Positions 14,263 through 19,821 of a stretch of 64,000 bases of DNA are shown here, one piece after another. Position numbers and translations under genes: made by a program. Below the pieces are notes generated by a model that did not search any database, was not told where the DNA came from, and worked only from the letters and a program-made list of their open reading frames with translations. The DNA is taken from contig CAWGYD010000004.1 of NCBI GenBank assembly GCA_963826785.1, positions 32,001 through 96,000 on the forward strand, written 5' to 3'. This DNA comes from an uncultured delta proteobacterium. Its GTDB lineage: Bacteria > Desulfobacterota > Desulfobacteria > Desulfobacterales > Desulfosalsimonadaceae. Positions within the stretch are counted from its first letter, which is position 1; each line of letters begins with the position of its first letter.

Positions 14263-16359
14263 TCAGTTGGCGGCCATTTTGGCCCGGGCTTCTAAGGCCA
14301 GGTCCCGGACCCGGGCGATATCCTCGTCGGAGAACACGCCGTTGACACCGGAAATGGCCGCAAGCTTCATGCCGTGCTTCAGCCCCATCTTGTAGATGGC
14401 CTTGACCTTCTCCCACTCGATGTCCCGTCCGATGGTGAAGACCTCAAAGCGCCCCTCCAGGGCGAGCACGATGGTTTCCGCCAGACAGGCGTAGGCCACC
14501 TTGGGGGGCAGACCGATGTCCTTCATCTTGGGGTTGCCGGGGAGCAGGATTTCACCGGATTCGATCACCAATACATCCGGACGCTTGGCCACGTCCTTGG
14601 GGGGGATGTCCAAAGGCCGCGCCACATCGGTGATAACACATCCGGGCTTGACCTTGGTGATGTCTAAAATTTTCTTTCCCATCCCCGAGGTGGAGGTGAC
14701 GATGACATCCATGTCCGCCAGGTACTTGTCCGGGTTGACGGCGGGGTGGATCTTGACGTTGGGGGTTTCCTTTTCGATGGATTCCTTCAGGGCCATGAGC
14801 TTGATGATGTTTCGGCCGCACAGGTAGACCTCCTCGAAGGCCATGGCCAGCAGGCGGCAGCAGACCGAACCGATGGCGCCGGTGGCCCCGAACACCATGG
14901 TCTTGGCCTTTATTTTCTTGCCCGGTTCGATCTGGATCAGCCCCATGCGGCGCACGGCGTCCGCCGCGGCCCAGAGGGCGCCCGAAGCACTGTAGGAGTT
15001 TCCGGTGGTGATGGGAATATCGGCCTTTTTGGCCACGGTGACCCCGGCGTCTCCCACCACCTTGGTAAAGGCGCCCAACCCCATGATCTGGGCGCCCATC
15101 CGCTTGGCCATGCGCGCGGCCATGAGCAGGCGCTTGTAGGTGAATTCCGGGGAATGGAGCATCATCTGTTTGGGGGTCCCTCCCACGGTGATCAGCCATC
15201 CTTCGGCCTCCATCCCGGTGGGGGACTTGATGCCGGTCACCCTGGAGTAGACCCAGGGCGGGGAGTAGGCCACGATTTTCTCGATGGCATCCACCGCGCC
15301 GGGAATTTTCACGAACGGTTTGACCTTCTTTTCCAGTTTGAACTGTTCCTGGGACAGGGGGTGGATAACGAAGGCGAACCGGGAAACCCGCCGGGGATTT
15401 CCCGACGGGTAGACCACCCGGGGATGAAGGCCGGTCTTGGTGCTGGTCATCAGATCCAGCATTTCCTCATCGGTGATCTGGTGCTGTTTTTTCCCCAGGG
15501 CGGCGATCACCAGGGCTTCCTGGACATTGACCCCCACCACCCGCTTCAGGATCTTGGGGGTGGTGTCGATGATCACGTCCACGCCCTGCTTCCTCAAAAA
15601 TTCGATCCGGTCGTCATAGGCGGTGGTGGTGATCACGGTCTTTCCCCCCAGTTCCTCGGGGGTGCAGTCTTCCACATAGCTGAAAAAATTGTGATAGGGG
15701 ATCACGATGACATGGGCCTTCTGCATGGCCTTGTGGATGATGTGACGGTTCCATTTTTTTACCGGAATGGCCGAATCGGTGATCCGCTTGCTGGGGACCC
15801 ATTTGAGAATGTCATGGGCGCCATTGGCATACAGATCGAGTTCCTTGAAGGAATTTAAAAACTTGGGGACGCCGTTTTCCAGGATGGGGTCGGCGAACAT
15901 CAGGTTATCGGTGAATTCCGACATCACCTTCGCCATCTTGTAGTGGGTGATCCCGGACAGAAACAGCACCCGGGAATTGTTGAAATACCCGCTCTGCTCG
16001 AACTGCATGGAGCGAAGCGCCCATTCATAGGCGACATTGATCAGCCGGTCCCCGGTGGTGACGGGGGTCTTCAAGCGGGACCGGAGTTTGGCCACCTTGC
16101 TGGAATCGTCCCAGACAAAATCGAGTATGTCCAATGCCGCTTTGAAATAAGAGCTTTTCTGCCGGGAGGTCGGAAGCCGGATGCTGCCCAGACCGAAGGC
16201 GTCGGCCTCGGAATCCAGTTGAATCAGCAGGTCCACGGCCCGGTCGTAGTCTCCGTTGGTGCCGATGCGTCGAATACGAAACTTTTCTCCCAGAAATTTG
16301 GCCTCAAATTCATAGTCATTGGCGCTGGACCCCACACTGATGCTGAATACCTGCTTCAT
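14263..16359 (-). CDS. Two-domain NAD(P)-binding dehydrogenase/reductase (C-terminal half resembles the acyl-ACP reductase/COG5322-like family)
   Basis: FAFVIHPL, GLGAFTKVVG, TTGNSYS, GATGAIG, DVARP and YACLAET motifs; start set at 16359 behind a GAGGGGGG RBS. Confidence 0.8.
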   Translation of the reverse strand: MKQVFSISVGSSANDYEFEAKFLGEKFRIRRIGTNGDYDRAVDLLIQLDSEADAFGLGSIRLPTSRQKSSYFKAALDILDFVWDDSSKVAKLRSRLKTPVTTGDRLINVAYEWALRSMQFEQSGYFNNSRVLFLSGITHYKMAKVMSEFTDNLMFADPILENGVPKFLNSFKELDLYANGAHDILKWVPSKRITDSAIPVKKWNRHIIHKAMQKAHVIVIPYHNFFSYVEDCTPEELGGKTVITTTAYDDRIEFLRKQGVDVIIDTTPKILKRVVGVNVQEALVIAALGKKQHQITDEEMLDLMTSTKTGLHPRVVYPSGNPRRVSRFAFVIHPLSQEQFKLEKKVKPFVKIPGAVDAIEKIVAYSPPWVYSRVTGIKSPTGMEAEGWLITVGGTPKQMMLHSPEFTYKRLLMAARMAKRMGAQIMGLGAFTKVVGDAGVTVAKKADIPITTGNSYSASGALWAAADAVRRMGLIQIEPGKKIKAKTMVFGATGAIGSVCCRLLAMAFEEVYLCGRNIIKLMALKESIEKETPNVKIHPAVNPDKYLADMDVIVTSTSGMGKKILDITKVKPGCVITDVARPLDIPPKDVAKRPDVLVIESGEILLPGNPKMKDIGLPPKVAYACLAETIVLALEGRFEVFTIGRDIEWEKVKAIYKMGLKHGMKLAAISGVNGVFSDEDIARVRDLALEARAKMAAN

Positions 16360-16621: not shown

Positions 16622-16720
16622 AAAAAAATACCCCTTGTCCGTAGGGGAGCGGACAAGGGGGTTAAGAAGGGGTTTTATATTTAAACCAAGAGAAATCTTC
16701 CCGATGAAAACTTCTCTTAT
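16622..16720 (-). ncRNA. Putative sRNA unit C
   Basis: ATGACA-16bp-TAAACT promoter (16753-16726), a 5' hairpin, a C/U-rich stretch, then a CCCCTTGTCCG/CGGACAAGGGG terminator with T-run; paralogous to units A and B. Confidence 0.5.
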
Positions 16721-16854
16721 AAATAAGTTTAAACATCTCTTGATTTTTGTCATCCGGATGGATTTTTAAATAACGGGCAAAAACTCAAACCACATGTTTT
16801 TACAGGATTTAATAGACGAGAAAAAATGTTGATAAGTTCCGGTCCGGGACCGGG

Positions 16855-17853
16855 TCACTTGGCCAGGCGGATCACCTTGCGTCCGAATCCGCGGCCGTCC
16901 AGCATCTGCTGAATTTGGCCTTCCAGGTCTTCCAGGCCGATCTCCGTGGCCATTTCGTGCAACCCGGCCAGTTTCCATTCGCCGGCCAGTTTCTCCCAGA
17001 TAAGCCGCCGGGTGGTCATGGGGCAGTGCTGGGAATCGATGCCAAACAGGCTGATGCCCCTTAATATAAAGGGAAATACGGTCAACGGGAGGTCGGCTCC
17101 GGCCACATTGCCGCAGCTGGTGATGTTTCCGCCGATCATGGTGGATTTGATGGCCGTGGTCAGAACGTCTCCCCCCACCGTATCCACCACTCCCGCCCAT
17201 CTCTGGTTCAGCAGGGGCTTTTTCGTTTCATCGGTGAATACATCTGCATTCACAATTTCTGCGGCACCCAGATCGTTGACAAAACTTTTATCTTCAGCGT
17301 GCTTGACGAGCCCCGCTACCCGGTAGCCGGATTTCACTAGAAAGGAGATAGCCATGCTGCCCACCCCGCCGGAGGCGCCGGTCACCAGGATATCCCCCCG
17401 GTCGGGAGGGAGATCCTGGATGAGCTTGTAGACGGACAGCCCCGCCGTAAAACCGGCGGTTCCGTAAGTCATGGCCTCTTTAAGGGTCAGATTCGGCGGG
17501 AGTTTGACCACCCATCCGGCGGGAACCCGGATGTACTCGGCAAACCCGCCGGAAGTATTCATTCCCAGGTCGTAGCTGGTGACGATAACTTCTTCCCCGG
17601 GTGCGAACAGGGATGAGCCGCTTTCCTCCACGACGCCTGCCGCATCGATGCCGGGGGTGTGCGGATAATGGCGGGTAATGCCCCGGTTTCCAGAGGCGGA
17701 CAGCGCGTCTTTATAGTTGAGGGAAGAAAACATCACCCGCACCAGTACATCCCCGGCCGGCAGTTCGCTGAACGCCTTCCGGGCGATTTTTCTGGTAAAA
17801 TGATGATCGCCGGCCTCTTCCACCACAAATGCCTTAAATGTCGTATCGGTCAT
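16855..17853 (-). CDS. Acryloyl-CoA reductase AcuI/YhdH-family oxidoreductase
   Basis: SSLNYKDAL, PGIDAAG, GTAGFTAG, TGASGGVGS and PFILRGISLFGIDS motifs. Confidence 0.92.
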   Translation of the reverse strand: MTDTTFKAFVVEEAGDHHFTRKIARKAFSELPAGDVLVRVMFSSLNYKDALSASGNRGITRHYPHTPGIDAAGVVEESGSSLFAPGEEVIVTSYDLGMNTSGGFAEYIRVPAGWVVKLPPNLTLKEAMTYGTAGFTAGLSVYKLIQDLPPDRGDILVTGASGGVGSMAISFLVKSGYRVAGLVKHAEDKSFVNDLGAAEIVNADVFTDETKKPLLNQRWAGVVDTVGGDVLTTAIKSTMIGGNITSCGNVAGADLPLTVFPFILRGISLFGIDSQHCPMTTRRLIWEKLAGEWKLAGLHEMATEIGLEDLEGQIQQMLDGRGFGRKVIRLAK

Positions 17854-17910
17854 TTCAAACCTCTCTTTTGCAACAGTATGGGGGCGCTGATCGCATTTTT
17901 CAAAAATAAT

Positions 17911-18005
17911 AAAAAAATCGCCCCTTATCCGATTTACGGACAAGGGGCTTTTCGGGGAGGGGGTGAGATGAAAATTTTTTTATATTTTCATTTATTTACT
18001 CACCG
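17911..18005 (-). ncRNA. Putative sRNA unit B
   Basis: ATGACA-16bp-TATTCT promoter (18038-18011), UUUUCAUCUCACCCCCUCCCC segment, GCCCCTTGTCCG/CGGATAAGGGGC terminator with T-run. Confidence 0.55.
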
Positions 18006-18080
18006 TTTTAAGAATAACCACTCCGGTCGGGTTGTCATGTTTTTTTTTAATGCCTGCCATCAGTGCGGCATTTGGCGCTG

Positions 18081-18183
18081 AAATATAAAGCGCCCTGTCC
18101 GCAATTGCGGACAGGGCGCTTTTCTCAGGAGGTAGGATTATGAAAAAACAAATCGTAGGGAGGTTTATTCCTTCATTCCTATG
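18081..18183 (-). ncRNA. Putative sRNA unit A
   Basis: CTGACA-16bp-TATTTT promoter (18216-18189), UUUUUUCAUAAUCCUACCUCCU segment, perfect AGCGCCCTGTCCGC/GCGGACAGGGCGCT terminator with a T-rich tail. Confidence 0.55.
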
Positions 18184-18246
18184 AAATTAAAATAACCATG
18201 AAATCCGGTTTGTCAGTCTTTACGCTGCAACGTGTTCATTTTATGC

Positions 18247-19821
18247 TCATCCCCGTGAGGGGATGAAGCTCATGGCCCGCTCCGCCAGTGCGGTGATGGT
18301 CAGGCTGGGATTCGCCCCGATGTTGGCGGACACCGCCGAACCGTCCGTGATGAACAGCCCCGGATAACCAAACACCTGGTGACGGGTATCGATCACCCCG
18401 GTAGCGGCCGATTCCCCCATGTGGCATCCTCCCAGGATATGGGCGGTGGTGGCGGTGTTGCCGATGCTTTCGGTGAGAATGTTCAAGGGCAGGCCGCCGG
18501 TCACCTCACCCAGAACCCGGGCGGCATGGTTGGCCACGGGCAGGTAGGTGGGAGCGGACTTGCCCTTCACCGTCCTGGATTTTAAGCCCCTGCGGAACAG
18601 GAAGGAGGCTTTCCGGCCATAGACGAAGGAGATCTGGTTGTCCAGGTGCTGCATTACCGTCAGCACGGTCACCCGCCGGTTCCAATCTTTTGCCCCCCAG
18701 TTTTTCGCCAGGGTCGAGGGCCGGGCAATCATGGCGGCCAGGGTTTTGAGCGACCGGACGGCCGGATTTGGGTGATCCACTAAAGGGCCGGTCAGAAATT
18801 TCATGAAGTTATACCCTTTTGGAAACCGGTTCTGGGTGATGTGGGTGTGCGCGTCCGGGTAGAAATGGGAAGAAATGGCGGTGCCGTGCGTCAGGTCCTT
18901 TTCGGTGTCCGGGGAGAGCACCCCCACGATGGCTTCGCTGTTGGTCCGCACCACCCTGCCGAGCTGAGTGGAAACCAGGGGCAAGGTCCGGATGACGTCC
19001 CTGCAGTGAAACAGCAGCTCCAGGGTGCCCAGAACGCCCCCTGCCAGCACCACCTGCTTTGCATGGATGGACGGATATTTCCGGAAGGGTTTGGCCGGGT
19101 GCTTCATGTCCAGGCCGTATCCACCGGATTCAAGGGGGCGGATGGCGGTCACCTTGCGGAAAGGGAGCACGGATGCCCCCAGACGCCGGGCAAGGTAGAG
19201 ATAGTTTTTGTCCAGGGTGTTTTTGGACCCGTGGGGGCAGCCGGTCAGACATCTGCCGCACAGGAAGCATCCGCTCCGGTGGGGGCCTGCCCCCTTGAAG
19301 AAGGGGTCCGGAACCCGGACCTCCGGGGTGCCGAAATAGATGCCGTTGGGGGTGGGGCCGAAGGTCTGCTCCGCTCCCATCTTCTGAGCGGTCTTTCGAA
19401 GATATCCGTCCTGGATATCGGAGGCGGGATTATCCACCACCCCCAGCATGTTTGCGGCCGTTTCATAATGTCCGGCCAGTTCGGCCTTCCAGTCCATCCC
19501 CAGGTTGGCCCAGGCCGGGTCCCGGTAAAAGGCATCTTTGGGGCGCAGCAGCACGGCTGCATATACAATGCTGCCTCCGCCCACGCCCACTCCCCGGACC
19601 AGGGTCACGTGGCGAAAAAAATCCTGGGAAAAATAGCCGGTCTGCCCCAGGGCGGGTGCCCAGTTGAGGCGAAAAACACTGTCCTCGCCTTCTTCCATGT
19701 CTTCGGGCGCAACGGGTCCACCCTGCTCCAGCACCACTACCTTATACCCCTTTTCGGCAAGACGAAGGGCGGAGACGCTCCCCCCGAATCCGCTGCCCAC
19801 GATGGCCACATCATAGTCCAT
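18247..19821 (-). CDS. GMC oxidoreductase, cholesterol oxidase-like
   Basis: GSGFGGSVSALRLAEKG, GVGGGSIVY, C..CG.C.TGC, TAHILGG and NPSLTITALAER motifs. Confidence 0.92.
   Translation of the reverse strand: MDYDVAIVGSGFGGSVSALRLAEKGYKVVVLEQGGPVAPEDMEEGEDSVFRLNWAPALGQTGYFSQDFFRHVTLVRGVGVGGGSIVYAAVLLRPKDAFYRDPAWANLGMDWKAELAGHYETAANMLGVVDNPASDIQDGYLRKTAQKMGAEQTFGPTPNGIYFGTPEVRVPDPFFKGAGPHRSGCFLCGRCLTGCPHGSKNTLDKNYLYLARRLGASVLPFRKVTAIRPLESGGYGLDMKHPAKPFRKYPSIHAKQVVLAGGVLGTLELLFHCRDVIRTLPLVSTQLGRVVRTNSEAIVGVLSPDTEKDLTHGTAISSHFYPDAHTHITQNRFPKGYNFMKFLTGPLVDHPNPAVRSLKTLAAMIARPSTLAKNWGAKDWNRRVTVLTVMQHLDNQISFVYGRKASFLFRRGLKSRTVKGKSAPTYLPVANHAARVLGEVTGGLPLNILTESIGNTATTAHILGGCHMGESAATGVIDTRHQVFGYPGLFITDGSAVSANIGANPSLTITALAERAMSFIPSRG

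Follow-up and report, generated by a model that had tools for sequence, protein, structure and literature searches.

In Sinorhizobium meliloti, the small RNAs (sRNAs) called AbcR1 and AbcR2 (and NfeR1) silence many transporter mRNAs at the ribosome-binding site (RBS); AbcR2 is RpoH1-dependent, and its sibling is under a different regulator (PMC8844928). In Streptococcus, a translation block by the csRNAs at comC was shown by compensatory mutation (PMC3091779, PMC4507080). Post-transcriptional regulation is almost undescribed in the Desulfobacterales, and literature searches gave only DseA and Dv_sRNA2 of Desulfovibrio. Here we describe three units, A, B and C, on the minus strand of a 64,000-nucleotide (nt) stretch of DNA from an uncultured member of the Desulfosalsimonadaceae (GCA_963826785.1, contig CAWGYD010000004.1, positions 32,001 to 96,000), which we call the window. 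The three are very probably sRNA genes on the sequence evidence given below. We also think it likely that they are siblings that would be induced by stress together with clpB and would block the translation starts of many mRNAs. An earlier note on this DNA had proposed sibling, co-regulated, trans-acting RNAs directed against the Shine-Dalgarno (SD) element and the initiation codon; this is still the best reading, and homologues keep the promoter, the seed register and the terminator. Two points go beyond that note: the promoter is of a clpB/heat-shock class and not plain sigma-70, and the RNA body recurs across the order under sigma-54 promoters.

Units A, B and C and their relatives in the Desulfosalsimonadaceae

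All three units, with the common architecture reported for them, are present in the window sequence. They are AT-rich and intergenic, lie among lipid-metabolism genes and, like every window feature located below, are on the minus strand. Each has NTGACA, a 16-nt spacer ending in TG(G/T)T (a length that the promoter coordinates confirm in all three), TAnnnT, a 5′ hairpin and a terminator. Unit A has a clpB-type two-box promoter, CTGACA-N12-TGGTTATTTT, at 18189..18216 (CTGACA 18216-18211, TGGTTATTTT 18198-18189), and a predicted sRNA of about 102 nt at 18081..18182, with +1 inferred from the position of the -10 box. The predicted RNA begins with a 5′ hairpin (GGAAUGAAG..) with a CCUCCC loop, and is folded so that the sequence complementary to AUG (the anti-AUG) is locked in the stem while the anti-SD is open. 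The loop anti-SD (CCUCC) is placed at 18159..18163 by predicted fold and sequence, the seed UUUCAU-N7-CCUCC (anti-AUGAAA plus anti-GGAGG) lies at 18128..18145, and the predicted terminator stem-loop, a perfect 18-nt inverted repeat with a weak U-tail, occupies 18087..18122. Unit B stands in tandem behind A. Its promoter (ATGACA-N12-TGGTTATTCT) is at 18011..18038 (ATGACA 18038-18033, TGGTTATTCT 18020-18011), its predicted sRNA of about 94 nt at 17911..18004 (sequence and predicted fold), its UUUCAU-N7-CCUCC seed at 17956..17973, and the stem of its predicted intrinsic terminator, followed by a U7 tail, at 17920..17948. Unit C has its promoter (ATGACA-N12-TGTTTAAACT) at 16726..16753 (ATGACA 16753-16748, TGTTTAAACT 16735-16726), a predicted sRNA of about 98 nt at 16622..16719 (sequence and predicted fold) and a predicted intrinsic terminator stem at 16631..16660. 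Its seed is divergent, reading UAU-N6-CCUUC (16666-16670), and CUCCCC is found in its terminator loop.

The seeds of A and B are, as had been claimed, the exact reverse complement of GGAGG-N7-ATGAAAA. The UUUUCAU motif with a C-rich tract, which the earlier note gave to all three units, holds for A and B, but the UUUUCAU of C is part of its 5′ hairpin and not in register with the C-rich tract, so that UAU-N6-CCUUC is the only in-register anti-start of this unit. The related terminator stems hold good: they align without gaps, and two compensatory changes plus one G-U are seen across the three. The run of Ts after them is weak in A. These related stems occur at three loci only, A, B and C, in the 4.4-Mb host genome (88% complete). 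Compared with dinucleotide shuffles, the folds of the three predicted RNAs have z-scores of -8.4 (A), -7.4 (B) and -5.9 (C), mostly driven by the terminators. Generic counts were modestly above shuffles for promoters (5 vs 2.2) and terminators (6 vs 2.7); chance is excluded by the specific motifs in common and by homologues in relatives, not by these counts.

A first covariance model, built from A, B and C, recovered similar full-length units, promoter included, in six further Desulfosalsimonadaceae genomes. A second, extended model added copy D in the same genome as the window, a second copy in G070, units in G014 and G004 and a contig-end fragment in G071; a third added no strong member. This search, which the earlier note had suggested, gave 14 full-length units in 9 of 58 genomes of the family, plus the one cut by a contig end. 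Since only about 56 candidates were scored per genome, of hundreds to thousands, this distribution is a lower bound. Copy D lies on another contig (G000:C6:923065-923198; L060/L232) and its terminator is without a clear U-tail; an exhaustive seed-plus-hairpin scan of this genome gave no fifth copy. No Rfam family matched the window units or 20 relative loci at the gathering threshold, and only sub-threshold noise appeared at E<=10, in keeping with the earlier remark that the family was not recognised. A mobile or REP-type (repetitive extragenic palindromic) repeat does not fit either, a match to a known mobile repeat having been named as a possible refutation: no repeat matched, and the four copies in the genome each have a chromosomal-regulon promoter.

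The complement of GGAGG-N7-AUG, CAU-N7-CCUCC, is present in nine of the 14 full-length units (A, B, D, G072, G019, G070b, G011, G007a and G007b). Predicted folds leave its CCUCC mostly unpaired in eight of these nine, and the anti-AUG usually pairs with the 5′ arm, which itself resembles a start region. The predicted probability that the anti-AUG is unpaired is 0.06 in A, 0.02 in B, 0.35 in D and 0.77 in G011; besides G011, it is unpaired only in C, G007a, G014 and G004. In 10 of 15 units, pairing of the 5′ arm exceeds that of shuffled arms (<=14/500), and these include all four copies of the window's genome (<=8/500). In the terminator, 10 of 12 pairs show double changes and none of 500 shuffles scored as high, in a model-fitted alignment and as expected of any true terminator set.

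Several wider scans were also performed. Model matches consisting of a terminator only, or having no promoter, were dropped (L041, L042, L043, G045, G047, G002, G010, G064, G004b, G070 C159, G173, G028, G165a and G165b). The exact terminator pattern had three non-self matches in the 58 family genomes, all in coding sequence. Matches to the -10-plus-seed pattern in 401 genomes of the order were mostly reverse strands of ordinary gene starts, and one of 30 loci (G294) scored on the model; the 23 matches in G112, identical among the matches listed, represent a multicopy mobile element. A strict promoter-plus-seed scan of a species-genome collection gave 57 matches, five of which scored on the model, all from Desulfobacterales-type metagenome-assembled genomes. 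A metagenome scan gave eight matches, none scoring on the model. Three sets of DNA reads yielded only short contigs, one of which is identical to the window over 16637-16851 and may come from the source sample. Of 88 viral matches, 28 passed a lax hairpin filter and none had, on reading, the family's strong terminator or body.

Relatives under sigma-54 promoters across the order

Weaker model matches across the order have the seed and terminator behind TGGCA-N6-TTGC, which we take to be a sigma-54 promoter. This combination of promoter and seed was found in 161 of the 401 order genomes and 68 of 175 genera (224 matches); the reversed pattern gave one match, and a 7-nt spacer gave matches in 18 of 401 genomes. 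The loci that were read are among the matches listed, 150 of 224, and a few are chance gene starts. Of 44 loci examined, 43 passed the hairpin filter, but because this filter is lax the visual reading of the loci is the better evidence. A seed-bearing variant in one genus (L267-L270: G028, G430, G183 and G305) fits the pattern with the 7-nt spacer. Close tandem pairs like A-B are also seen among the sigma-54 type (G102:C1:4038578-4039134, G307:C11:272839-273330 and G144:C2:347377-350143).

Two classes can be described. In class I RNAs, a short stretch without structure, bearing the seed UUUUUUCAUCUGUUCUCCUCC, precedes the terminator. Of 48 fetched loci, a kin-clustered sample, 19 have the RNA just downstream of one orthologous NtrC-type activator gene. 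Several of these loci (L279-L285) carry tandem TTTCC-N4-GGAAA palindromes about 120-150 nt upstream of the sigma-54 promoter, likely an enhancer for the adjacent activator. Class II RNAs carry a CCUCC loop on a GGAAUGAAG/CUUCAUUCC hairpin, and their body of about 70 nt is nearly invariant in 18 of 18 loci. Most of them diverge from an HTH_17 gene, and an HDOD gene is often close by (L356-L370). The class II copy of G112 sits between chemotaxis/motor-like genes, a hint of a motility link.

The clpB-type and sigma-54 forms were not seen side by side in any of the genomes tested. The sigma-54 form was not found in the window's genome, in 11 sampled genomes of the family or in five of five sRNA-bearing family genomes, and RpoN is present in five of five family genomes tested. 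The best match to the activator in the window's genome is 46-50% identical, vs 57-77% for the copies linked to the sRNAs. In common with class II, unit A has the GGAAUGAAG 5′ arm, the CCUCC loop, UUCAU..UCC.ACCUCC and a CCCUGU/ACAGGG terminator stem, and none of 126 control terminator regions matches the class II body as well as A and C do. The sigma-54 unit of G294 was recovered by a model whose training set was the family's units alone, and in G112 and G294 the sigma-54 -12 element overlaps a TGCTTAnnnT box. We consider it the likeliest history, and lean towards it, that the family's units descend from the sigma-54 family by promoter exchange. The seed-plus-terminator body would, in the Desulfosalsimonadaceae, probably have been rewired to a clpB-type promoter and then duplicated locally (the A-B tandem, and C).

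Alternatively, the two forms may have arisen independently, the simple design of anti-SD, anti-AUG and terminator having been reached twice with no promoter switch. We hold this to be possible but doubtful. It is favored by the sigma-54 promoter (GG-N10-GC) being absent from all 15 family units with no remnant upstream, by the different neighboring genes of the two forms, and by B, D, G011, G014 and G004, which are only weakly closer to sigma-54 bodies than controls are (2-7/126). These weak scores count against a single descent and could reflect convergence, in part of the family, on a simple anti-SD theme. Against independent origins stand the arm, loop, seed and terminator stem common to A and class II, the recovery of G294 by the family-only model, the overlapping boxes of G112 and G294, and the fact that no genome tested was found to hold both forms. 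A switch from sigma-54 to an RpoH-type promoter, if true, would be a clear natural example of an sRNA rewired between global regulons.

Promoter class and proposed action

The sRNA promoter consensus, TGACA-N12-TGNTTAnnnT, is the clpB promoter class of the family. TGACA-N12-TGNTTANNNT occurs seven times in the window's genome, compared with 0-3 times at the other spacings tested, and three of the seven are A, B and C; it is present in 58 of 58 family genomes, with 0-4 matches to the reversed pattern in each. When a matrix made from the sRNA promoters only was run over 1975 upstream regions (from crude gene calls), clpB was the top non-sRNA site, and nifU, clpS, two hsp20 genes and lon were also high; a further check confirmed the gene names. 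An independent test used the clpB upstream regions of 30 family genomes (L156-L185), the window's own included. The -10 box was found in 29 of 30, in 28 with TTGACA exactly 12 nt upstream, and on the antisense strand in 6 of 30. The -10 box also precedes 7 of 12 chaperone/protease genes vs 114 of 1806 genes (p = 2e-6); the motif itself had first drawn attention to some of the seven. In the window's genome, clpB-type boxes were further seen upstream of lon, hsp20, nifU, a DUF255 gene and usp genes.

This genome encodes two RpoH-like sigma factors that are 54% identical (G000:C1:757016-757960 and G000:C6:915451-916461), the second 6.6 kb from copy D. One scores above and one just below the PRK06596 cut-off, and both are below that of TIGR02392. 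Lysine K130 of E. coli RpoH contacts the C-rich extended -10 (PMC10216364); of the two sigma factors, one has Q at the aligned position and the second has G. For sigma-32 promoters of delta-proteobacteria the consensus in print is CTTGAAA-N11/16-CCCCAT, and an N13 site listed for Desulfotalea, CTTGAcA-N13-aCttAT (PMC545781, Table 9), has the geometry of the sRNA and clpB promoters. We regard TTGACA-N12-TGNTTAnnnT as a candidate non-canonical sigma-32 consensus. RpoH-type control of the sRNA promoters is probable in our view, and the clpB motif on the units suggests that they are probably switched on with the protein-stress (RpoH-type) response.

Two observations count against RpoH: the window promoters differ from CTTGAAA-N11/16-CCCCAT (PMC545781), and the strict box is missing at dnaJ, grpE, hslV, one ftsH and one hsp20. 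The same sRNA function could instead be served by a promoter read by RpoD with a shared regulator, the link to the clpB regulon then not being driven by RpoH. The sigma-70-like -35 (TTGACA), a -10 without the CCCC of E. coli sigma-32 and the heat-shock genes lacking a strict box would fit this, which we nevertheless judge unlikely. The tRNA and tmRNA (transfer-messenger RNA) promoters have a 17-nt spacer without TG-N-T (16 of 45 genes, vs 1 of 45 with the sRNA type), and the geometry equals that of the Desulfotalea N13 sites. Moreover, the spacer and flanks of the 29 clpB promoters are not conserved, leaving no operator, and no CIRCE (controlling inverted repeat of chaperone expression) element was found in the window's genome within three mismatches. 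The data yield a sharp promoter consensus for the family's clpB/heat-shock regulon.

Based on these observations, we propose the following mechanism. An RpoH-like sigma factor would read (N)TGACA-N12-TGNTTAnnnT, yielding an RNA of 94-102 nt that ends at the intrinsic terminator. The CCUCC that is left single-stranded at the base of the 5′ hairpin would nucleate on a GGAGG SD sequence; where the mRNA continues for about 7 nt and then reads AUG-AAA, strand invasion would open the hairpin that hides the anti-AUG. The hairpin would thereby be a specificity gate, sparing the need for Hfq, and the sRNAs would pair in trans over the RBS and start codon of many mRNAs, blocking their translation. Hfq (PF17209) was not found in six of six genomes, four of them >=97% complete on 1-4 contigs. 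The stem-hidden anti-AUG suggests how a promiscuous anti-SD RNA may gain specificity without Hfq. Of the proposed steps, trans pairing at translation starts is quite likely.

About 277 of 3733 gene starts in the window's genome have GGAGG at 6-8 nt, and 66 of those continue with AUG-R-A-R. No perfect complement to the seed was found at a gene start in this genome or in five genomes of the order, which fits a multi-target regulator. When 500 pre-selected translation initiation regions were co-folded with each RNA, the hairpin cut those bound at <=-15 kcal/mol from 223 to 4 (A), 189 to 19 (B) and 301 to 9 (D). This removal of most strong predicted interactions is consistent with a toehold gate. 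Predicted targets are broad overall. Those of unit A are led by an MscS channel and a universal stress protein, and an envelope tilt is limited to copy D, for which 12 of the top 20 have an N-terminal hydrophobic segment and OmpA-, porin- and FadL-like proteins are among the best. By a crude rule, 46% of starts reading AUGAAAAA encode such a segment vs 23%. The class I seed has partial complements at several solute-binding-protein starts, a query that itself selects Met-Lys starts. The acyl-ACP (acyl carrier protein)-reductase-like gene downstream of C and its paralogue (G000:C8:26013-28112) are predicted targets, ranking third for C and 6th-14th for A.

Other results weigh against the reading of A, B and C as gated start-site blockers. 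For A, B and C, the top predicted targets show no enrichment of (exported) proteins with a hydrophobic N terminus. In C, G070a and G067 the CCUCC is missing or the anti-SD is sequestered, covariation of 5′ hairpin pairs was not above shuffles in six alignable units, and 49 of the 58 family genomes had no full-length match among the candidates scored. Taking all of this together, we offer only tentatively the broadest version of the model: an order-wide, Hfq-independent start-site blocker moved by promoter exchange from NtrC/sigma-54 to a non-canonical RpoH, and acting in the family as the repressor arm of heat shock, toehold-gated by a 5′ arm that imitates an SD-AUG and in this way selecting the largely exported proteins, starting with Met-Lys, to be shut off under protein stress.

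The RNAs might instead be decoys that titrate a protein or the ribosome through their C-rich loops without pairing to mRNA. The class II body is conserved beyond the usual need of target pairing, and there are up to three C-rich loops and no single perfect target. On the other hand, the fixed CAU-N7-CCUCC register copies the geometry of mRNA starts, the loops cannot pair with 16S rRNA because they are anti-SD, and known anti-SD sRNAs act by pairing (PMC8844928, PMC4507080). We find a decoy role improbable.

The gene neighborhood bears on a further alternative. On the minus strand the order is a GMC/cholesterol-oxidase-like gene (18247..19821), A, B, an AcuI/YhdH-like reductase gene (16855..17853), C and a 698-amino-acid acyl-ACP-reductase-like gene (14263..16359). 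The G014 copy likewise sits after a GMC/cholesterol-oxidase-like gene, and homologues of the acyl-ACP-reductase-like gene are close to the copies of G072, G019 and G070. Most copies have a same-strand gene 20-350 nt downstream, as cis-acting leaders or attenuators (for instance, thermosensing ones) would. This is very improbable, however: the genes that follow have no relation to one another (pckA, typA, oxidoreductases and others), A precedes B and not a gene, a separate 17-spacer promoter at 17903-17875, directly behind the terminator of B, serves the acuI-like gene, many sigma-54 copies face a convergent gene, and the predicted folds contain no antiterminator. A type I toxin-antitoxin locus, with the RNAs cis-antisense to plus-strand mini-open reading frames (ORFs) starting at the complementary ATG, is hardly credible: A and B do have a perfect SD and ATG on that strand (ORFs of 14 and 37 amino acids), but the mini-ORFs, whose conservation the earlier note had raised as a refutation, are short (6-37 amino acids), unalignable across the 15 units and without a conserved hydrophobic peptide, those of sigma-54 copies run from 4 to 84 amino acids, and two units have no ATG.

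Separately, a G/C-run intergenic palindromic element, REP-like (CCCCC(T)CGAGGGGG-like), was noticed elsewhere in the genome (G000:C3:~349300, ~351500, C3:~308470, C1:~528000 and C1:~306830).

Comparison with described systems

The delta-proteobacterial sigma-32 promoters resemble those studied here in the -35 TTGA(C/A)A, the N13 geometry and the chaperone/protease genes they serve, and differ in that the extended -10 here is TGNTTAnnnT, a consensus from the present data, and not CCCCAT (PMC545781). As in an RpoH regulon, the promoter is common to chaperone/protease genes and an RpoH-like sigma factor is encoded; the CCCCAT -10 was not found.

The csRNAs resemble the present units in being sibling RNAs of 50-200 nt with two stem-loops, an anti-SD and an anti-AUG (CAU), and in having tandem and distal copies, one common promoter class and an Hfq-free host (PMC3091779, PMC4507080). 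Unlike the units described here, with their clpB-class promoter and no Rfam match, csRNAs are CiaR-dependent and belong to the Firmicutes (PMC3091779). Their anti-AUG is unpaired, whereas it is stem-locked in A, B, D and most relatives (PMC3091779, PMC4507080). The csRNA UCCUAAA nonamer (PMC3091779) is absent on reading of our sequences; CiaR itself was not searched for.

AbcR1 and AbcR2 are likewise homologous siblings, with one anti-SD in a 5′ hairpin loop and one in a linker (PMC8844928). They are alphaproteobacterial and act in an Hfq network (PMC8844928), whereas here Hfq was not found and Rfam gave no match, and the anti-AUG here has a fixed N7 spacing and is hidden in a stem. The AbcR layout with two anti-SD sequences is seen in unit A and class II, but not in B, C or D.

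LuxO is sigma-54-dependent. The Qrr RNAs are multicopy sRNAs activated by this response regulator (PMC4211561), a likeness to the sigma-54 forms; the window copies have no sigma-54 promoter and no Qrr match in Rfam. Dv_sRNA2 lies downstream of the gene for its sigma-54 regulator, DVU0679 (PMC3333781), like the 19 of 48 class I loci. The DVU0679 site, CGTGCGTATTCGCACG (PMC3333781), differs from the TTTCC-N4-GGAAA repeats.

No description of the family was found in the open-licence literature, including the portion available of bioRxiv 10.1101/803072; work in subscription journals on the sRNAs of sulfate reducers or on Geobacter RpoH may affect its novelty. What emerges is an sRNA family that is widespread, whose seed is predictable and for which there are two candidate regulators, and it is open to work in cultured members of the order. 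By the tests made, it is a member of none of the known systems compared. It is a new RNA family and a regulatory variant, within a class of mechanism that is already known.

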